IMG/VR virus record: IMGVR_UViG_2706794686_000005
DNA from: a virus
Lineage: Duplodnaviria > Heunggongvirae > Uroviricota > Caudoviricetes
Strand: one strand, 5' to 3'
Length of the DNA: 7,517 bases
Positions 1 to 7,517 of the stretch are shown here, piece by piece; within the stretch, counting starts at the first letter, position 1, and the number at the start of each line of letters is the position of its first letter. The notes under the pieces were generated by a model. That model did not search any database, was not told the origin of the DNA, and saw nothing but the letters and a program-made list of their open reading frames with translations. A program made the translations under genes and the position numbers.

Positions 1-87
1 CCCCGGCAGCCTTCAGGGAAAAATATCATCAGATGGCTGCTTAAAAAAAGAACAAATGGTAGTGTCCGCTATTGCCAGTACACCTCA
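1..87. repeat. Left copy of an 87-bp perfect inverted repeat; its reverse complement is 7420..7506
   Basis: Manual reverse-complement of 7420..7506 matches 1..87 base for base; match breaks at 88 vs 7419. Window begins exactly at the repeat boundary. Confidence 0.9.
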
Positions 88-286
88 TCCATCACCGAAA
101 AAAATTGGCTTTTACACCATTGGCGATAAAAGCATTTACCTGTATGACCTACGCCGCATGGATGAAATCATGGAGGCTCTTGATAATCGTTCGTCGATGG
201 ATTGGTGTGTTGCTGTTCATGATATGAATGCAGGGTTTGATGAAAAGATTTTGTTCCCCTCATCAGTTGAAAGCACTGCGGGTTAA
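56..286 (+). CDS. Hypothetical protein (76 aa from ATG 56); frame is open back to position 2, so may be 5'-partial
   Basis: ORF in track; no Shine-Dalgarno before ATG 56 (aaaaaagaacaaATG); no in-frame stop between position 2 and 56; first 10 codons lie inside the inverted repeat. No family recognised. Confidence 0.35.
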   Translation: MVVSAIASTPHPSPKKIGFYTIGDKSIYLYDLRRMDEIMEALDNRSSMDWCVAVHDMNAGFDEKILFPSSVESTAG

Positions 287-296
287 GGAGTAACAC

Positions 297-464
297 ATGA
301 CCACTATTACCAAAGAACGTATTGAATTGTTCATTAAAAACCCGCTTGAAAACGGGCTTACCCGTGGTGAACAAATGGAACTGGCACGGATTGCGCTGGC
401 ATCGCTGGAAGCAGAGCCGGTTGTGTTCTGGTTTGAAAAATATCAAGAAGGGGCTACGGCATGA
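297..464 (+). CDS. Small hypothetical phage protein, 55 aa ([12 protein letters not shown]...); not in the ORF track (below length cutoff)
   Basis: Strong RBS AAGGAG at 285..290, 6 nt before ATG 297; stop TGA overlaps next start as ATGA at 461..464; shares motif [10 protein letters not shown] with the 114-aa ORF downstream. Confidence 0.5.
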
Positions 465-805
465 CGACTTTTACCAGAGAGCAGTTAATAGCTCACGCAG
501 AGGAGACTATTGAAGCACAGAGACTGTGCATACCGGGCACAATCGACCATGACATCATCCGCACATATAAGATGGATATTGCTGTTCTGGAAATCGCACT
601 GGTATCGCTGGCAGCAGAGCCAGCCGGTAAATTGCATGAATACAAACCAGTGGGATATCAGCGTCTGGTCGATGAGTTAACCATGCTGGTAAAGCAGTTA
701 ACCTGGCAACTGAGGAAAGCGAAGCCAGACTGCAAATTACCGGATAAGGCGATGAGTTATCTGGAGCGGAACGGACTGATAAGCGTGGAGGATATTTTAC
801 GATGA
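461..805 (+). CDS. Hypothetical phage nin-region protein, 114 aa
   Basis: ORF in track; ATGA overlap with upstream ORF; purine-rich aagggg 8 nt upstream; paralogous motifs shared with the 55-aa and 80-aa ORFs. No family recognised. Confidence 0.55.
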
Positions 806-885
806 CCTGGCCTGAAGCATTAACAACGGTAGGAATTGCGATGGCGGTGGCGCTGGTGGTGTATTCGATTTGCCGCTGGGGATAA
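802..885 (+). CDS. Putative small hydrophobic peptide, 27 aa ([27 protein letters not shown])
   Basis: ATG 802 overlaps the stop of the 114-aa ORF (ATGA); single predicted membrane-spanning hydrophobic stretch; too short for statistical support. Confidence 0.25.
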
Positions 886-1096
886 AAACGGTTTGCGGGA
901 AAAGGAGAGTTAAGTAGAATTGCAGCGGGTGCTTGAGGCTATCTGTCTCAGGCATGAACACCAAAAGGCAGATAGAGAAAAGCCCCAGTTAACATTACGC
1001 GTCCGGCAAGACGCTTAACATTAATCTGAGGCTCAATCTATGAACGGCAAATCTAGGTTAGCCTCTTACGTGCCGAAAGGCAAGGAGAAGCAGGCT

Positions 1097-1252
1097 ATGA
1101 AGCAGCAAAAGGCGATGTTAATCGCCCTGATCGTCATCTGTTTAACCGTCATAGTGACGGCACTGGTAACGAGGAAAGACCTCTGCGAGGTACGAATTCG
1201 AACCGGCCAGACGGAGGTCGCTGTCTTCACAGCTTACGAACCTGAGGAGTAA
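1097..1252 (+). CDS. hokD: Hok/Gef family type I toxin, 51 aa (host-killing membrane peptide); closest to HokD/RelF by memory
   Basis: Translation MKQQKAMLIALIVICLTVIVTALVTRKDLCEVRIRTGQTEVAVFTAYEPEE matches the Hok family signature (N-terminal TM helix, conserved Cys, C-terminal TGQTEVAVFTAYE) as I recall it; SD AGGAG at 1083..1087. An in-frame upstream ATG at 1040 (SD GAGG 1028..1031) would give a 70-aa extended form. Confidence 0.85.
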   Translation: MKQQKAMLIALIVICLTVIVTALVTRKDLCEVRIRTGQTEVAVFTAYEPEE

Positions 1253-1320
1253 GAGACCAGGCGGGGGAGAAATCCCTCGCCACCTCTGATGGGGCAGGCA
1301 TCCTCAATGCACCCACACTT

Positions 1321-1347
1321 AACCCGCTTCGGCGGGTTTTTGTTTTT
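1321..1347 (+). terminator. Rho-independent terminator after hok
   Basis: Stem CCCGC (1323..1327), TTCG tetraloop, GCGGG (1332..1336), followed by TTTTTGTTTTTATTTT. Confidence 0.7.
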
Positions 1348-1360
1348 ATTTTCAACGCGT

Positions 1361-1390
1361 TTGAAGTTTTAGATGGTGCCGGAATAGAAT
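1361..1390 (+). promoter_or_regulatory. Putative sigma70 promoter for the downstream operon
   Basis: TTGAAG (1361..1366), 18-nt spacer, TAGAAT (1385..1390); sequence match only. Confidence 0.3.
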
Positions 1391-1472
1391 CAAAAATACT
1401 TAAGTAGCGCGCAGGGAGAAGAGGGATGGACCCCGAACAGGGGAGTGCTATTTATCTGGAAGGATTCTGTTG

Positions 1473-1754
1473 ATGAAAATCGAAGAATTACGTGAAATTT
1501 TTAGTGAAGATGGCCTCTATACTGTGCGCGTTGAGAATGGCGCTATTGTCAGCCACTGCCTTCCAGACTACACAATTCTGATAATTCAGCCGTCTTTGCC
1601 AGCAGGCACGGGCGGCGCTCTCACGCATTTAAATCTGATTGGTACCAGCATCCCCCATGCACTGAAGAACAGGCCGAATGGCTCATTCAGTGTTACCGCA
1701 GGCGCGGATGCGAGGTTAAAAAAGCCCTTAGCCTCGACTACCGTCACTGGATAA
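1473..1754 (+). CDS. Hypothetical protein, 93 aa (MKIEELREIFSEDGLY...)
   Basis: ORF in track (TTG 1470 / ATG 1473); SD GGAAGGA at 1459..1465. Sits where rem-like genes lie upstream of ydfU in some prophages, but family not recognised. Confidence 0.45.
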   Translation: MKIEELREIFSEDGLYTVRVENGAIVSHCLPDYTILIIQPSLPAGTGGALTHLNLIGTSIPHALKNRPNGSFSVTAGADARLKKPLASTTVTG

Positions 1755-1829
1755 TCTCCGTCAGGCTCCCTTACTCCGAACGGCCAACGCGTCCGTCCCG
1801 CACATTCCAGCAACGGATCTGGAGGTAAT

Positions 1830-2888
1830 GTGCGGGTATTACTTCGACCTGTTCTGGTACCGGAACTCGGTCTGGTTATCGTTAAGCCAGGCCGTGAATC
1901 AATGTCAGCATTCCATAACGGCAGAATACTGGTGGAGCCGGAACCAAAAAGCATGCGTAATCTGCCGTCCGGGGTCGTTCCTGCCGCTCGCCAGCCGCTG
2001 GTGGAAGACAAAACATTGCTGCCGTTTTTCAGTAACGCACGGGTGATTCGTGCTGCTGGTGGTGCTGGTGCATTGTCTGACTGGCTGTTGCGCCATATTA
2101 AATCCTGCCAGTGGCCACACGGCGATTATCATCACAGCGAAACCGTCATTCACCGTTATGGTACCGGCGCAATGGTGTTGTGCTGGCACTGCGACAACCA
2201 GCTGCGTGACCAGACATCCGAATCACTCGAGCAACTTGCTCATCAAAACCTGTCAGCATGGATGATTGACGTCATCGGTCACGCAATAAGCGGTACGCAG
2301 GAGCGTGAATTATCTCTGGCTGAATTATCCTGGTGGGCGGTCCGCAATCAGGTGGCGGACGCGCTACCGGAAGCGGTATTACGTCGTTCGCTGGGGTTGC
2401 GTGCGGAAAAAATTCGCTCTGTGTACAGTGAAAGCGACATCATACCGGGAGAGCAGACAGCCACCAGCATACTGAAGCAGCGCACAAAAAATATTGCGTT
2501 ACTGCCTCACGTCCACCAGCAACAGAACCCACCACAGGAAAAGACGGTGGTCAGCATTGCCGTTGATCCGGAGTCACCGGCTCAGTATCTCCAGCGCCAG
2601 AAATCACAACGGGAAGAGATGCCTGTATACACGCGCTGGGTAAAAACGCAGAAATGCATGACGTGTGGCAATCAGGCAGATGATCCGCATCACATCATTG
2701 GTCATGGACTGGGAGGGATGGGAACAAAGGCTGATGATTTGTTTGTTATTCCGTTATGCCGTAAATGCCGTAACGAACTACATGCCGGAGTAAAAGATTT
2801 TGAAGAGAAACACGGCAGTCAGCTGTTGTTGCTGATTCGTTTTTTAATGCACGCGAGAAATTCGGGTGTTCTGAAGTGGAAAGCATAA
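1830..2888 (+). CDS. YdfU-like DUF968 family prophage protein, 352 aa, with C-terminal Cys/His cluster
   Basis: Long ORF; GGAGG at 1821..1825 before GTG 1830 (alternative start ATG 1902); C-terminal motif CMTCGNQADDPHH...CRKCRNELH resembles the DUF968 zinc-binding region; position immediately upstream of rusA and Q is typical. Confidence 0.75.
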   Translation: MRVLLRPVLVPELGLVIVKPGRESMSAFHNGRILVEPEPKSMRNLPSGVVPAARQPLVEDKTLLPFFSNARVIRAAGGAGALSDWLLRHIKSCQWPHGDYHHSETVIHRYGTGAMVLCWHCDNQLRDQTSESLEQLAHQNLSAWMIDVIGHAISGTQERELSLAELSWWAVRNQVADALPEAVLRRSLGLRAEKIRSVYSESDIIPGEQTATSILKQRTKNIALLPHVHQQQNPPQEKTVVSIAVDPESPAQYLQRQKSQREEMPVYTRWVKTQKCMTCGNQADDPHHIIGHGLGGMGTKADDLFVIPLCRKCRNELHAGVKDFEEKHGSQLLLLIRFLMHARNSGVLKWKA

Positions 2889-3269
2889 ATGACCGAGCGC
2901 ATAGAATTTGTTTTACCTTACCCGCCGACGGTGAACACTTACTGGCGTCGTCGTGGCAGCACATATTTTGTATCAAAAGCCGGGGAGCGTTATCGCCGGG
3001 CAGTGGCGCTTATTGTTCGCCAGCAGCGGCTGAAATTAAGCCTGTCCGGAAGGTTGGCAATAAAAATTATTGCAGAACCACCGGATAAGCGCCGCCGTGA
3101 CCTGGACAATATTCTGAAAGCGCCGCTGGATGCGCTGACGCATGCGGGGTTGCTAATGGACGATGAGCAGTTTGATGAAATCAATATCGTTCGTGCTCAG
3201 CCAGTATCTGGTGGACGTCTGGGGGTGAAGATTTATCCCATAATGCTTGAAGGGCAGGTCAAAAAATGA
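2889..3269 (+). CDS. rusA: Crossover junction endodeoxyribonuclease RusA (Holliday junction resolvase), copy 1, 126 aa
   Basis: Translation contains the RusA acidic core PDKRRRDLDN...DALT...DDEQ; start abuts the ydfU-like stop; stop overlaps next ATG (ATGA). Confidence 0.9.
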   Translation: MTERIEFVLPYPPTVNTYWRRRGSTYFVSKAGERYRRAVALIVRQQRLKLSLSGRLAIKIIAEPPDKRRRDLDNILKAPLDALTHAGLLMDDEQFDEINIVRAQPVSGGRLGVKIYPIMLEGQVKK

Positions 3270-3471
3270 AACTGGAAGATTTACCGAAATACTACTCCCC
3301 AAAATCCCCCGGCCTGACTGATGCATCGGCCTCAACGTCGAAAGATGCGCTGAGTATCACTGATGTGATGGCCGCGCAGGGCATGACACAGAATCGGGCT
3401 GAGATGGGGGTTTCTGCGTTCCTTGGGAAAATGGGCATTAGTATGAATGACAGAGAGCGGGCAACAGAATT
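3266..3471 (+). CDS. Lambda-Q-family antiterminator, N-terminal 69 codons only; 3' part lost in N-run 3472..3721 and probably truncated or chimeric
   Basis: MKLEDLPKYYSPKSPGLTDASASTSKDALSITDVMAAQGM... aligns with the lambda Q N-terminus (MRLESVAKFHSPKSPMMSD...SGTDVMAAMGM). In-frame sequence after the gap (WLSGDSGGQSTDIFCLWTRKVHGCFPLP*) does not resemble a Q C-terminus, and the total would be 180 aa at most. Confidence 0.5.
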
Positions 3472-3721
3472 NNNNNNNNNNNNNNNNNNNNNNNNNNNNN
3501 NNNNNNNNNNNNNNNNNNNNNNNNNNNNNNNNNNNNNNNNNNNNNNNNNNNNNNNNNNNNNNNNNNNNNNNNNNNNNNNNNNNNNNNNNNNNNNNNNNNN
3601 NNNNNNNNNNNNNNNNNNNNNNNNNNNNNNNNNNNNNNNNNNNNNNNNNNNNNNNNNNNNNNNNNNNNNNNNNNNNNNNNNNNNNNNNNNNNNNNNNNNN
3701 NNNNNNNNNNNNNNNNNNNNN
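3472..3721. other. N-run, 250 nt of unresolved or masked sequence
   Basis: Run of n in the sequence. Confidence 1.
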
Positions 3722-3887
3722 TGGTTGTCTGGAGATTCAGGGGGCCAGTCTACGGACATTTTCTGCCTGTGGACCAGGAAAGTGCACGGGTGCTTTCCAC
3801 TCCCATGAAGCCCGGCAATCCGCGCAGATACAGTAATAAACGAACTGACAGCAGTAAGATGGAGCGTTTCTTTTGAACAACCAGACA

Positions 3888-4130
3888 ATGACTTTTACCC
3901 CTGAACAATTGCGTAAACACGCGCAGGAAATGCTGCGTCATGCTGAACAACTCGAAAAAACGGGCATAACAAAAGACGCTATCCGTAAAGATATGGTACC
4001 CGCGCTTCGGGAACTGATGCAGGCGAAGCATCGCGCACAGAAAGCAGTAGATGAGCTGGTGGACTGTGTGGCAGAGCTGGAAACCAGAGTCGGAAAGTTT
4101 GAAAAACTGGTGCAGGAGGTGCTGCGCTGA
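3888..4130 (+). CDS. Hypothetical protein, 80 aa from ATG 3888 (85 aa from TTG 3873); predicted helical/coiled-coil
   Basis: ORF in track; stop TGA 4128..4130 overlaps the rusA copy 2 start (TGATG); N-terminus MTFTPEQLRKHAQE resembles the 114-aa [18 protein letters not shown]; weak RBS. Confidence 0.45.
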   Translation: MTFTPEQLRKHAQEMLRHAEQLEKTGITKDAIRKDMVPALRELMQAKHRAQKAVDELVDCVAELETRVGKFEKLVQEVLR

Positions 4131-4504
4131 TGCGCCATGAGTTTATTTTACCTTATCCGCCGACGGTGAATACTTACTGGCGACGTCGTGACAACACATA
4201 TTTTGTATCAAAAGCCGGTGAGCGTTATCGCCGGGATGTGGCGCTTATTGTCCGTCAGCAGCGACTGAAATTAAGCCTGTCCGGAAGACTGGCGATAAAG
4301 ATTATTGCAGAGCCACCGGATAAGCGCCGTCGTGACCTGGACAATATCCTGAAAGCACCACTGGATGCACTGACACATGCGGGAGTGTTAATGGACGATG
4401 AGCAGTTTGATGAAATCAATATCGTTCGTGGTCAGCCAGTATCTGGTGGACGTCTGGGGGTGAAGATTTACCCCATAATGCATGAAGAGCAGGTCAAAAA
4501 ATGA
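4130..4504 (+). CDS. rusA: Crossover junction endodeoxyribonuclease RusA, copy 2, 124 aa; divergent paralogue of copy 1
   Basis: Same RusA core motifs; SD AGGAGG at 4113..4118; differs from copy 1 at the N-terminus and at 7 internal residues, with many synonymous nucleotide differences. Confidence 0.9.
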   Translation: MRHEFILPYPPTVNTYWRRRDNTYFVSKAGERYRRDVALIVRQQRLKLSLSGRLAIKIIAEPPDKRRRDLDNILKAPLDALTHAGVLMDDEQFDEINIVRGQPVSGGRLGVKIYPIMHEEQVKK

Positions 4505-5175
4505 AACTGGAAGATTTACNNNNNNNNNNNNNNNNNNNNNNNNNNNNNNNNNNNNNNNNNNNNNNNNNNNNNNNNNNNNNNNNNNNNNNNNNNNNNNNNN
4601 NNNNNNNNNNNNNNNNNNNNNNNNNNNNNNNNNNNNNNNNNNNNNNNNNNNNNNNNNNNNNNNNNNNNNGCCCTTGTTGCTATGGGGAAAAATTTATTGA
4701 AAGCGTAGTTTTTACAAACAAGGTCCAGTATCCGGATGGTAAGCCGCCGGTATGGGCAAAGTGTACGAAAGGTGTGTATCCGTCTTACTGGGAAGAATGG
4801 AAAAAAGTCAGGGAGGTGGTAAAAGTTGCCTGTCCGGAGTGTGGCGGAAAGGGTGAGGTTTCCACCGCCTGTAAGGATTGCCGTGGGCGTGGTGTCGCCA
4901 TTCATCGTGAAGAGTCGGTAAAACGTGGTATGCCTGTTATCAGAGACTGCCAGCGTTGTGGTGGTCGTGGCTATGAAAGACTACCATCAACGGAGGCATT
5001 TAATGCTATATGCGAGGTGACAAACCAGATAACACGCGCGTCATGGGAAAAAACAGTTAAGAAATTCTATGATGCGCTGGTGACTCGGTTTGATATTGAA
5101 GAAGCATGGGCTGAGCGGCAGTTAAAAAAGGTAACTAGGTTGATTTTTCCGGAATCTGTGGTAAATTCGTCATAA
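4501..5175 (+). CDS. Q: Lambda-Q-family late-gene antiterminator, 224 aa; codons 7..56 masked by N-run
   Basis: ATGA coupling to rusA; first 19 nt identical to the Q fragment at 3266; zinc-finger-like CPECGGKG...CKDCRGRG...CQRCGGRGY and C-terminal TVKKFYDALV parallel lambda Q (CRDCHGTG...CGRCKGVGY...TVKPLYDALV). Confidence 0.8.
   Translation: MKLEDLXXXXXXXXXXXXXXXXXXXXXXXXXXXXXXXXXXXXXXXXXXXXXXXXXXXPCCYGEKFIESVVFTNKVQYPDGKPPVWAKCTKGVYPSYWEEWKKVREVVKVACPECGGKGEVSTACKDCRGRGVAIHREESVKRGMPVIRDCQRCGGRGYERLPSTEAFNAICEVTNQITRASWEKTVKKFYDALVTRFDIEEAWAERQLKKVTRLIFPESVVNSS
4520..4669. other. N-run, 150 nt, inside Q
   Basis: Run of n in the sequence. Confidence 1.
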
Positions 5176-5178
5176 CTA

Positions 5179-5215
5179 TGGGCGTTTTATGCCTGACGTT
5201 AGAAGAGTTTCTACA
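5179..5215. repeat. 37-bp direct repeat, copy 1 (tgggcgttttatgcctgacgttagaagagtttctaca), ending at N-run
   Basis: Identical to 5483..5519; true extent unknown because the inner side of each copy abuts N. Confidence 0.85.
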
Positions 5216-5482
5216 NNNNNNNNNNNNNNNNNNNNNNNNNNNNNNNNNNNNNNNNNNNNNNNNNNNNNNNNNNNNNNNNNNNNNNNNNNNNNNNNNNNNN
5301 NNNNNNNNNNNNNNNNNNNNNNNNNNNNNNNNNNNNNNNNNNNNNNNNNNNNNNNNNNNNNNNNNNNNNNNNNNNNNNNNNNNNNNNNNNNNNNNNNNNN
5401 NNNNNNNNNNNNNNNNNNNNNNNNNNNNNNNNNNNNNNNNNNNNNNNNNNNNNNNNNNNNNNNNNNNNNNNNNNNNNNNNNN
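5216..5482. other. N-run, 267 nt, in the expected pR'/qut position downstream of Q
   Basis: Run of n in the sequence. Confidence 1.
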
Positions 5483-5519
5483 TGGGCGTTTTATGCCTGA
5501 CGTTAGAAGAGTTTCTACA
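5483..5519. repeat. 37-bp direct repeat, copy 2
   Basis: Identical to 5179..5215. Confidence 0.85.
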
Positions 5520-5520
5520 A

Positions 5521-5542
5521 CCCGCCGCCGAGCGGGTTTTTT
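5521..5542 (+). terminator. Rho-independent terminator, tR'-like, downstream of Q
   Basis: Stem CCCGC (5521..5525), loop CGCCGA, GCGGG (5532..5536), then TTTTTT; the CGGG-TTTTTTAT ending resembles the lambda tR' 3' end as I recall it. Confidence 0.65.
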
Positions 5543-5662
5543 ATGACTGAAATCGCGTCAGTACAGTAAACGCGCTGGTGGCGGTGAATACCTGTCTTTC
5601 AGCTTGCTGGCTTTTTCGACAAGAGTTATTGGTGTGTCACGTTAACCGGAAAAGGAAAAGAC

Positions 5663-6370
5663 ATGCTAAAACAGCAGGATATGACAGAAACCGCCAGAGT
5701 GGTGTTTAATGAATTAAGCGTTNNNNNNNNNNNNNNNNNNNNNNNNNNNNNNNNNNNNNNNNNNNNNNNNNNNNNNNNNNNNNNNNNNNNNNNNNNNNNN
5801 NNNNNNNNNNNNNNNNNNNNNNNNNNNNNNNNNNNNNNNNNNNNNNNNNNNNNNNNNNNNNNNNNNNNNNNNNNNNNNNNNNNNNNNNNNNNNNNNNNNN
5901 NNNNNNNNNNNNNNNNNNNNNNNNNNNNNNNNNNNNNNNNNNNNNNNNNNNNNNNNNNNNNNNNNNNNNNNNNNNNNNNNNNNNNNNNNNNNNNNNNNNN
6001 NNNNNNNNNNNNNNNNNNGATTGAGTGTTTGTTATACGGTCTAATGGTTTTTTCAGCATTAAATATTTATCATTCATATGGTGTGGGTAGAGTGAATATT
6101 GATGAGGCGTCGGGGTGTTTCATCCTTAGGCAGCGTATTGATATAGTCAATGCAGCACGAGCAAAGGCCTTCAGCCGTTTGACAGTTTTGTTCTGTACTC
6201 CTGATCGTCTTTCGGGAAGAGACGTTATTATTCTGAATAGTGATGCTATACAGAGGGTTTGCGATGAGTTCATGGTTGCTAATTCAGAATTATTTGCTCT
6301 TGTTCAGGAGTACAACAGAATAGCCAGGACCTGTGGTATGGATGAACTTCGGATTACTCATCTGGGGTAG
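5663..6370 (+). CDS. Hypothetical cargo protein; 235 aa only if N-run 5723..6018 preserves frame and hides no stop; otherwise two genes
   Basis: Good RBS (aaaaggaaaag) before ATG 5663; 117 open codons after the gap; AT-rich codon usage with rare AGG/AGA/ATA/CTA; competing minus-strand ORF 5706..6077 lacks an RBS. No family recognised. Confidence 0.4.
   Translation: MLKQQDMTETARVVFNELSVXXXXXXXXXXXXXXXXXXXXXXXXXXXXXXXXXXXXXXXXXXXXXXXXXXXXXXXXXXXXXXXXXXXXXXXXXXXXXXXXXXXXXXXXXXXXXXXXXXXIECLLYGLMVFSALNIYHSYGVGRVNIDEASGCFILRQRIDIVNAARAKAFSRLTVLFCTPDRLSGRDVIILNSDAIQRVCDEFMVANSELFALVQEYNRIARTCGMDELRITHLG
5723..6018. other. N-run, 296 nt, inside the cargo ORF
   Basis: Run of n in the sequence. Confidence 1.
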
Positions 6371-6696
6371 ATACATATCTGGATTATCACCTGTTACGGT
6401 AAAAAGTGATTGCTTACTGTTTTTGTGAATGGCATTGCAGCAGCCGGATAATGTCAGTGCTGGCTGACGGTGTGCTGGTGGCGGGTGTGGTGGTTGTTGC
6501 TTTCCCGTTGCTGAAAAAGAAAACGCCAGACTGTTAGCCGGGTATCAGTTAGCGGGAGAAATTTTTAAATACTTCACAATTCAGGCGGTTGACTGTTGTC
6601 TGGTTTGCGGGGAGTTTGTTAAAAGAAACTGGCATGGTGAATCCCCCTGTGCGGAGGGGCTGTTTATATTGATTTTGTCAGATGTGAGTAAACTCC

Positions 6697-7032
6697 TTAT
6701 GGACTTTGTTGTTTTAGTCCATAAGGACATATTTGCAGAGTGCAACGGTTATTAAAGCATTCATTCAATACGTTATCTGTATTTGTAGGGCATTCCTGGC
6801 TATTTTTGATTGAATTCCAGAATGTTTTATTGAATGGTACTACGTTGTAAATGGTTACAGGTAGCACTTTGTTATTGAGCATGATGCCTGTGTGAGTCAG
6901 TGTAAATATACTTTCAGGAGGTAAGAAAGCATCCGATTGATACCAGATTATTAATTTTATTTTACTCCATATGACTGAAAAAGATATTCCGCATGATGGC
7001 TGGATAACTGTATCAATCACAATCCACTTCAT
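6697..7032 (-). CDS. Hypothetical protein, 111 aa, Cys/Trp-containing, in AT-rich DNA
   Basis: Minus-strand ORF with no overlapping plus-strand gene; RBS AAGGA about 6 nt before the ATG (plus-strand 7030..7032 is cat); candidate promoter TTTACA-N17-TACTTT upstream on the minus strand. No family recognised. Confidence 0.45.
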
Positions 7033-7292
7033 TTAGTTTCCTTGTTTATGCCTTGCTGGTGATGTTCTGAAAAGTATAAATGATATTTTTGAATGTAAAC
7101 CATAGAGCAGAATTATTTTTCTGATGTTGTTTATTGTTTATTTAAATGCAGGGTGGTTTATATCTCGTCTTGTAGTTTATCCATGCATATCTGCTTGATA
7201 ATCAGGTTTTTATTTAAGGTATGGTTTTGTGTTTTTTCTGTATTACATGTCAGGTATTTTAAAGAATTATTTTTCAGATGGTGGAAAGAACC

Positions 7293-7466
7293 ATGGCATT
7301 TAAACACTATGATGTTGTCAGGGCGGCGCCGCCGTCAGATCTTGCGGAAAAGCTGACACATAAACTGAAAGAGGGCTGGCAGCCGTTTGGTAGTCCGGTG
7401 GCCATAACCCCTTATACCCTGAGGTGTACTGGCAATAGCGGACACTACCATTTGTTCTTTTTTTAA
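7293..7466 (+). CDS. Small hypothetical phage protein, 57 aa (MAFKHYDVVRAAPPSDLAEKLTHKLKEGWQPFGSPVAI...); last 15 codons encoded by the right inverted-repeat copy
   Basis: ORF in track from ATG 7278; ATG 7293 preferred because of ggaaag upstream; the GWQP.G motif is reminiscent of small phage proteins in the DUF1737 class, but that is uncertain memory. Confidence 0.4.
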   Translation: MAFKHYDVVRAAPPSDLAEKLTHKLKEGWQPFGSPVAITPYTLRCTGNSGHYHLFFF

Positions 7467-7506
7467 GCAGCCATCTGATGATATTTTTCCCTGAAGGCTG
7501 CCGGGG
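7420..7506. repeat. Right copy of the 87-bp perfect inverted repeat (reverse complement of 1..87)
   Basis: Verified by manual reverse-complement in 10-nt blocks; followed by 11 nt (agatattcccc) to the window end. Confidence 0.9.
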
Positions 7507-7517
7507 AGATATTCCCC

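Follow-up and report, generated by a model that had tools for sequence, protein, structure and literature searches.

The window, that is, the whole stretch of 7,517 nt analysed here, is best explained as a draft scaffold, and not a continuous piece of chromosome, assembled from short reads of a Shigella sonnei-type genome, and its two side-by-side rusA-Q modules as the product of stitching short contigs across repeats; we put the probability of this reading at about 0.88. The rusA-Q pairs themselves are real and ordinary parts of two different decayed lambdoid prophages, named here loci A and B. Inverted IS600 ends close the scaffold on both sides, and four N-runs interrupt it. The pieces are interleaved in the order A-left, N, IS2 end plus B-left, N, 3' part of Q-B, N, a 240-nt A piece, N and B-right, as follows.

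1 to 87, minus strand: terminal 87 nt of IS600 on the side downstream of the transposase, repeated in inverted orientation at 7431-7517; left scaffold end.
88 to 3471, plus strand: contig A1, left part of prophage remnant locus A (ompW side).
2889 to 3269, plus strand: rusA-A, RusA Holliday-junction resolvase gene, 126 aa (PF05866, E=1.5e-16).
3266 to 3471, plus strand: first 206 nt of the antiterminator gene Q-A (PF03589, E=3e-12), cut by the end of contig A1 and not by biology.
3472 to 3721: N-run 1, 250 N, the sole link of module A to module B.
3722 to 3752, minus strand: IS2 terminus of 31 nt; contig B1 begins on its left with this repeat.
3753 to 4519, plus strand: remainder of contig B1, left part of locus B; exact match to L013, 9593-10390.
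4130 to 4504, plus strand: rusA-B, RusA gene, 124 aa (PF05866, E=1.8e-16).
4520 to 4669: N-run 2, 150 N, inside Q-B, replacing 330 nt of real sequence.
4670 to 5215, plus strand: contig B2, 3' part of Q-B (stop at 5175) and 40 nt downstream; exact match to L013, 10721-11266.
5216 to 5482: N-run 3, 267 N, with the same 37 nt on either side (5179-5215 = 5483-5519).
5483 to 5722, plus strand: contig A2, a locus-A piece amid locus-B pieces; exact match to L023, 12303-12542.
5723 to 6018: N-run 4, 296 N.
6019 to 7419, plus strand: contig B3, right part of locus B; exact matches to L013, 11694-12335 and 12457-13313.
7420 to 7517, plus strand: terminal 98 nt of IS600; right scaffold end.

Every non-N piece (A1, B1, B2, A2, B3) was traced, with 99.8-100% identity, to finished S. 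sonnei chromosomes, where the pieces fall on two separate loci. The left arm is identical to CP104423.1, CP146298.2 and Ss046 (CP000038.1) at 3470 of 3471 positions. The two rusA genes have the same orientation in the finished chromosomes and lie 670,067 bp apart in CP104423.1 and 664,665 bp apart in CBDDMI010000001.1, and the two flanks of N-run 1 belong to loci 670 kb from each other in the former. The original prediction placed the modules in tandem. This placement is not upheld, as the link consists of Ns only, the loci are ~665-670 kb apart, and tandem adjacency was absent from the gap-free assemblies of the same lineage, where all 32 loci from Mb-scale chromosomes showed a single rusA within ±10 kb.

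Locus A reads IS600, small ORFs, hok/sok, DUF968, rusA-A, Q-A, a 65-aa ORF and a methyltransferase gene, and locus B reads IS2/IS21, helicase, an 85-aa ORF, rusA-B, Q-B, tRNAs, iraM, DUF1737 and IS600. The gene tables of ~60 contigs showed an intact Q-A after rusA-A, and IS2/IS21, not module A, ahead of rusA-B. A 343-nt exact stretch of Q, which lies within contig B2, a 62-nt terminator segment and tRNA genes are common to both loci. Contig A1, which gave Pfam and Rfam hits, holds sok/hok (927-1252), DUF968/ydfU (1830-2888), rusA-A and the beginning of Q-A (206 nt) besides small ORFs, and the annotation of NZ_CP065613.1 placed the 3' end of a replicative helicase gene (to ~3875), the 85-aa ORF (3873-4130), rusA-B and the first 19 nt of Q-B (4501-4519) on contig B1. 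Contig A2, of which locus B shares only the first 62 nt, carries a tR'-like terminator (5519-5538), and the 65-aa ORF that comes after Q-A starts on it (at 5663). Contig B3 contains a DUF3927 ORF (6406-6537), iraM (6697-7032, minus strand) and a DUF1737 gene (from 7278) truncated by IS600.

The junction between the modules contains no uninterrupted sequence: it consists of 250 N, then the terminal 31 nt of IS2, then the 3' end of the helicase gene. The IS2 terminus (3722-3752) is joined to 790 nt of IS2 in L036 and is annotated as IS2 in E. coli records. Its junction recurs at position 9593 in L013-L022, and an exact-pattern scan of the genome contig collection for the IS2/helicase junction gave no match. 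The gap lengths are inconsistent with the real loci. At N-run 2, positions 4519 and 4670 of the window fall on 10390 and 10721 of L013, so that 150 N stand for 330 nt. N-run 3, contig A2 and N-run 4 together occupy 803 positions where the real locus B has 427 nt, two tRNA genes included. The 37-mer that stands on either side of N-run 3 occurs only once at each real locus. Moreover, the region downstream of the junction is not collinear with any one real locus, as the locus-A piece at 5483-5722 sits amid locus-B pieces. In-place masking of a finished genome was considered and ruled out, because the N-run lengths are unequal to the sequence they replace and the pieces of the two loci are interleaved.

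All four N-runs sit where the real loci hold repeated sequence (IS2/IS21, the near-identical 5' part of Q, the 62-nt terminator segment and the tRNA genes). Contig B1 carries exactly 31 nt of repeat at each end, namely the IS2 terminus and the start (4489-4519) of 56 nt over which the two loci do not differ, which fits the expectation for a de Bruijn unitig with k near 31. Contig A1 ends one base before an A/B polymorphism, and contig A2 starts two bases after one. One k-mer model for all contig ends was rejected: k ~31 fits both ends of B1, but the scaffold ends hold 87 and 98 nt of IS600, B2 runs 38 nt into a repeat, and A1 and A2 stop beside polymorphisms. Since no single k fits all contig ends, the exact behaviour of the assembler is something we infer.

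The Q genes and their downstream regions are near-identical between the loci, and for this reason the assembler would have broken its contigs at these repeats and retained one version of the 3' part of Q. The scaffolder may then have placed A1 and B1 as left arms, B2 as the collapsed Q piece and A2 and B3 as right arms in one row, with N-runs between them. A repeat node with two paths in and two paths out, linearised in this manner, would mimic tandem rusA-Q modules. In six IMG/VR draft scaffolds that share this IS2/helicase junction, single-N gaps connect the A and B pieces; their order takes at least five different forms, and one scaffold has three rusA copies.

An alternative is that the outer frame of the scaffold is real and the tandem is not. 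Homologous recombination in the shared 343 nt, for instance following an inversion through IS600, would produce recombinant loci (A-left with B-right, and B-left with A-right), and the scaffold would have merged both recombinant paths. The window does open with A-left and close with B-right, both adjoining IS600; two IMG/VR contigs, L035 and the N-free L037, run from B-left through a hybrid Q to A-right; and LR213449.1 and CP045932.1 have IS600 inversions that would set the two loci in inverted orientation. However, a chimeric contig formed through the 343-nt exact repeat explains L035 and L037 equally well, and all finished chromosomes examined show the parental configuration. With the shared 343 nt lying between the informative sites, the scaffold itself reads the same for parental and recombinant loci. 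We regard this explanation as unlikely.

A real tandem bridged by IS2 appears more improbable still. It supposes an IS2 inserted in Q-A after nt 206, followed by recombination with the IS2 of locus B, or by a transposition-associated duplication, which would set a copy of module B immediately behind module A. N-run 1 is indeed bordered on its right by a genuine IS2 end, and IS-mediated rearrangements are common in these genomes (L028, L031). Contig A1 also precedes B1 in the draft scaffolds L034 and L036, which could reflect a real arrangement in some strains and not a systematic artefact, and in L034 it ends at exactly the nucleotide where it ends in the window. Beside A1, however, there is no IS2 sequence, and the A1 contig of L036 passes the supposed insertion point by 27 nt of normal Q-A sequence; an IS2 insertion in Q-A was therefore rejected as the cause of the A1 break. 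Simple IS2-IS2 recombination between the direct loci would delete ~670 kb of the chromosome, and a bridged tandem leaves the locus-A piece between locus-B pieces and the wrong gap lengths unexplained. No finished chromosome examined has this arrangement. Should it be true, one prophage remnant would hold two diverged, potentially active RusA resolvases 0.9 kb apart. A recent local tandem duplication of one module with later divergence is scarcely credible. It would account for the same gene order and the identical ATGA junctions, but the copies differ by 9% at nucleotide level, mostly at synonymous positions, their upstream neighbours are wholly different (DUF968 for module A, helicase and 85-aa ORF for module B), and for each copy a locus of its own, with 100% identity, exists elsewhere. 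The modules are thus diverged homologues from two different lambdoid prophage lineages, in agreement with the original prediction, which traced them to two different lambdoid phages and not to a recent duplication.

Each module is a standard lambdoid pair of rusA (Holliday-junction resolvase) and Q (late antiterminator) with an ATGA stop/start overlap. The two predicted RusA genes of 126 and 124 aa with ~93% identical proteins were borne out by the ORFs and by the alignment (114 of 123 residues identical, 93%). Both proteins score 61 bits against PF05866 (cutoff 22.8 bits), and the match spans 1-123 of the 124 profile positions. The genes differ at 34 of 372 aligned nt (~91% identity), with 22 synonymous and 9 non-synonymous codons. 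The catalytic residues of E. coli RusA are D70, D72, K76 and D90/D91 (PMC1636454), and in the alignment to this protein they correspond to D71/D73/K77/D91-D92 in copy A and D69/D71/K75/D89-D90 in copy B. RusA-A also aligned without gaps to PDB 1q8r (E=9e-22), with the catalytic residues (DLDN...K and DD) at equivalent positions. The acidic catalytic motif is retained in both copies, as had been predicted. Among S. sonnei-type loci, rusA-A is 100% identical in 12, and rusA-B is 100% identical in 9 of the 10 S. sonnei chromosome loci examined and 99.7% in L014. In the protein collection, exact RusA-A was found in 8,626 blocks and exact RusA-B in 2,654.

The coupling of each rusA to a Q start through ATGA, with an identical first 19 nt (ATGAAACTGGAAGATTTAC) in both modules, is likewise present in the sequence. 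In the finished genomes the identical stretch at the Q start is 56 nt and not 19; the 19 nt mark the place where contig B1 ends. Within the window, N-runs interrupt both Q genes, whereas both are intact in the finished genomes (Q-A 273 aa, Q-B 284 aa); in Q-B an 8-nt deletion removes the stop codon and adds 11 aa. The upstream Q had been described as truncated or chimeric. This look arises because the ORF at 3266-3808 reads through N-run 1 into unrelated DNA. The downstream Q, described as full length, is broken in the window by N-run 2, and its 3' part on contig B2 matched PF03589 with E=1.6e-31. The original prediction had also allowed that the N-runs might be artefacts and that a single rusA-Q copy exists; the N-runs are indeed artefacts and the tandem is probably mis-scaffolded, but both copies exist, at separate loci. 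A terminator scan found a hairpin with a T-run at 5519-5538, which lies ~60 nt past the Q stop in the real loci, and a simple scan for a late promoter after Q gave no sigma-70 consensus.

The modules resemble the nin-region rusA-Q modules of lambdoid (pro)phages in gene order (DUF968-rusA-Q or helicase-small ORF-rusA-Q), in the D/D/K/DD catalytic residues of RusA, and in a PF03589-type Q followed by a putative hairpin terminator. There is no difference of substance, and the two S. sonnei prophages are both IS-riddled remnants. Module A matches the 'PPompW'-type prophages of the ompW site (ydfU/DUF968-rusA-Q), and module B has the context helicase-hyp85-rusA-Q. Matches of ~90% at nucleotide level included phages annotated 'holliday junction resolvase | antitermination protein Q' and PPompW records. 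Adjacent or nested lambdoid prophages, as in LC567818-LC567834 (Stx2a phage and PPompW), also bring two prophages with their own rusA/Q into one region, and one record had two matching places. There, however, tens of kb of complete prophage lie between the modules without gaps, whereas here the rusA genes would be only 0.9 kb apart and joined only by Ns.

The window also resembles collapsed-repeat mis-scaffolding of short reads in IS-rich Shigella genomes: the contigs break off at IS2, IS600 and paralogous prophage sequence, the gaps have the wrong size, contig ends recur beyond a gap, pieces from two paralogous loci alternate, and other drafts give other orders; it departs from this pattern in that k ~31 fits some contig ends only. 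The biology behind it, a standard rusA-Q pair in each of two decayed lambdoid prophages, is already well known, and the juxtaposition, even if real, would simply add to the IS-mediated rearrangements for which this genome is famous. The main value of the finding is one of caution, since N-containing drafts of IS-rich, multi-prophage genomes such as Shigella can mimic tandem modules, truncated genes and chimeric ORFs.

Compared with all finished genomes seen, contig B3 lacks 121 nt at 6660/6661, and exact-pattern scans of the genome, viral and metagenome contig collections for the deletion junction returned no match. At the left scaffold end, positions 1-87 match the IS600 end annotated in NZ_CP065613.1 at 100%, and the IS600/locus-A junction is also present in S. 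sonnei chromosomes. An IS600 inversion was seen in L028 and L031, and real IS-mediated rearrangement is frequent in Shigella genomes.

The same IS600 terminus stands in inverted orientation at both ends of the 7,517-nt window (1–87 and 7420–7517), each copy matching an annotated IS600 end at 100% identity, and four N-runs break the sequence between them. As insertion sequences bound it and the N-runs are of irregular length, the window looks like an entire small scaffold of a draft assembly made from short reads. It was compared, by BLAST and exact-string comparison, with RusA-bearing Mb-scale chromosomes obtained from exact-protein look-ups of each RusA, including Shigella sonnei 53G (HE616528.1), 75/02 (CP019689.1), and Ss046 (CP000038.1) (strain names from PMC5447701). 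We found that the window is a mosaic of two separate loci, A and B, both decayed lambdoid prophage remnants in S. sonnei chromosomes. The pieces, named by source locus, and the N-runs are as follows:

1–3471, A1, locus A (3470/3471 identical)
3472–3721, N-run 1 (250 N)
3722–4519, B1, locus B (exact)
4520–4669, N-run 2 (150 N)
4670–5215, B2, locus B (exact)
5216–5482, N-run 3 (267 N)
5483–5722, A2, locus A (240/240 identical)
5723–6018, N-run 4 (296 N)
6019–6660 and 6661–7517, B3, locus B (exact)

In this order, a locus-A fragment sits among locus-B fragments.

The two RusA genes of the original prediction were confirmed as ORFs of 126 aa (rusA-A, 2889–3269) and 124 aa (rusA-B, 4130–4504), which both gave full-length PF05866 matches and matched 1q8r, the solved structure of E. 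coli RusA (E=9e-22). RusA resolves Holliday junctions in a Mg2+-dependent manner, and its residues D70, D72, K76, and D90/D91 are reported to be critical for cleavage (PMC1636454); both copies conserve these residues and keep the acidic catalytic motif, as predicted. The ATGA overlap, in which each rusA stop runs into the ATG of a Q gene (PF03589 type), was also present, followed by 19 identical nt. The proteins share 114 of 123 residues, and aligning the genes over 372 nt gives 34 differences (22 synonymous and 9 non-synonymous codons). This divergence refutes a recent duplication of the module, in agreement with the prediction.

Both modules are typical lambdoid nin-region rusA-Q pairs, already known and very common among prophage genes. 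Module A (rusA-A and Q-A) is about 90% identical to the PPompW prophages at the ompW site and to two Escherichia phages annotated with ydfU, Holliday junction resolvase, and antiterminator Q, and the rusA-Q of module B shows 87–93% identity to other lambdoid phages. The proposed origin from two lineages is borne out.

In the finished chromosomes, locus A adjoins ompW and consists of IS600, three small ORFs, hok/sok, DUF968, rusA-A, Q-A (273 aa), a 65-aa ORF, an N6/N4 methyltransferase, and IS600. Locus B, which has an ipaH-type effector gene nearby, runs from an IS21-interrupted IS2 through the 3' end of a replicative helicase gene, an 85-aa ORF, rusA-B, and Q-B (284 aa) to two tRNA genes, DUF3927, iraM, DUF1737', and IS600. 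The rusA genes start at 1,863,428 and 2,533,495 in CP104423.1, 670,067 bp apart in the same orientation, and the distance in CBDDMI010000001.1 is 664,665 bp. A nucleotide search for rusA found a single copy per ±10 kb in 32/32 loci from Mb-scale chromosomes, and module A never appeared upstream of rusA-B in the gene tables, where IS2/IS21 was found each time. The claim of a tandem was not supported, as the modules are linked only by N-run 1 and lie ~665–670 kb apart in two finished chromosomes.

The window itself also contains signs against the tandem. N-run 1 is followed on the right by the terminal 31 nt of IS2 (3722–3752) and then by helicase-gene DNA. The gap lengths are wrong: N-run 2 gives 150 N in place of 330 nt of Q-B, and N-run 3, A2, and N-run 4 give 803 positions in place of 427 nt. 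In the true loci, every N-run falls at sequence repeated elsewhere in the genome, namely IS2/IS21, the near-identical Q 5' region with exact stretches of 56 and 69 nt, a 62-nt terminator segment common to A and B, and tRNA genes common to A and B. B1 begins and ends in repeats of exactly 31 nt, on one side the IS2 terminus and on the other the opening 31 nt of the 56-nt stretch identical in A and B, a pattern that fits a de Bruijn unitig with k near 31. The same 37 nt flank N-run 3 on both sides, and this 37-mer is single-copy at each real locus. A/B polymorphisms lie one base beyond the end of A1 and two bases before the start of A2; A-type Q between these points is absent from the window, where only the B-type (B2) is found, including a 343-nt stretch identical in both loci. 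The upstream Q had been described as truncated or chimeric, but ORF 3266–3808 is a read-through of Ns, and in the gene tables every rusA-A is followed by an intact Q of 273 aa. This apparent Q and, almost certainly, the tandem arrangement are products of scaffolding across repeats.

The IS2/helicase junction is common to six IMG/VR draft contigs, in which A and B pieces are joined variously via single-N gaps:

L033, B path only
L034, A1, N, IS21/IS2, B1
L035 and L037, B-left, hybrid Q, A-right
L036, A1, N, IS2, B1, Q, N, second rusA-B, Q-B, A2 (three rusA)
L038, B path, A pieces, B3 again

Joins this varied would not arise from a fixed, real arrangement. In L036, rusA copies of types A, B, and B follow one another over single-N gaps (~1460–4880); the second B copy matches the first at 100% identity, a clear redundancy artefact. 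Its IS2/helicase junction has 790 nt of unbroken IS2, unlike finished S. sonnei, where IS21 (istA/istB) is inserted in the IS2 upstream of locus B (~6286–9623 in L013–L022; also 2233–2549 in L034). L035 and L037 run from the IS2 end through helicase', rusA-B, a hybrid Q (B 5', A 3'), and the 65-aa ORF region to IS600, L037 without any N; they are either real Q-A/Q-B recombinants or contigs chimeric through the 343-nt identical stretch.

On the simplest reading, the Q region would have been collapsed into a single copy, and its left arms A1 and B1 and right arms A2 and B3 would then have been set in one line, a layout step that we infer. A real IS2-bridged tandem in the strain of the window is very improbable: it needs extra events for A2 among the B pieces and for the wrong gap sizes, and a simple IS2–IS2 exchange between the direct loci would remove about 670 kb. 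Moreover, the A contig in L036 extends for 27 nt after window position 3471 as ordinary Q-A coding sequence, so that strain has no IS2 inserted there. Somewhat more plausible, though still unlikely, is that the strain of the window has recombinant Q-A/Q-B loci, in which case the outer frame from A-left to B-right would be real. The reciprocal B-left/A-right join of L037 is consistent with this, as are inversions mediated by exactly this pair of IS600 copies in LR213449.1 and CP045932.1; even so, the tandem of rusA genes would be artefactual.

In these two finished chromosomes (L028 and L031, ~1–8215), a resolvase/Dam/203-aa block lies left of the locus-A IS600, and in other strains it stands right of the locus-B IS600, implying that the ~670 kb between the two oppositely oriented IS600 copies bounding the window was inverted. 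In NZ_CP065613.1, filed as E. coli FDAARGOS_944, module B is 99.7% identical, IS600 splits the helicase gene, and pseudogenes are many; this IS load is Shigella-like in a record labelled E. coli.

Q is the antiterminator of the late genes; the type found here is PF03589, with CXXC motifs resembling those of zinc fingers, and the Q-A and Q-B proteins are about 96% identical. Compared with Q-A and with the homologue in E. coli FDAARGOS_944, Q-B of S. sonnei carries a deletion of 8 nt (window 5140–5175; L013 11185–11226) by which the stop codon is lost and 11 residues are added, extending the protein from 273 to 284 aa (…KKVTRLIFPESVVNSS). A hairpin terminator lies downstream of Q at 5519–5538. 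Just downstream of Q-B, the real locus B has a tRNA-Met(CAT)-like gene and a tRNA-Arg(TCT) gene (L013 11329–11581, missing between window 5545 and 6018), and locus A has three tRNA genes; the window lacks them all because their positions fall in gaps.

The window also contains a complete hok/sok type I toxin-antitoxin locus (927–1252):

927–1102, sok RNA (Rfam RF01794, 112 bits)
1040–1252, Hok/Gef ORF, 70 aa (PF01848), its leader overlapped by sok RNA

At 6660/6661 (L013 12336–12456), 121 nt present in all finished S. sonnei and the top E. coli matches are missing; they lie within an A/B-common stretch, bounded by a 9-nt direct repeat (CGGAGGGGC) in hairpin-like sequences, and their absence reflects either a deletion particular to this strain or an erroneous merging of contigs. 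Window 6020–6370 holds the C-terminal 116 codons of an ORF found in locus B only (92–108 aa in L016 and L017), which had no Pfam hit, and the apparent 235-aa ORF at 5663–6370 is its false fusion over N-run 4 with the 65-aa ORF of locus A.
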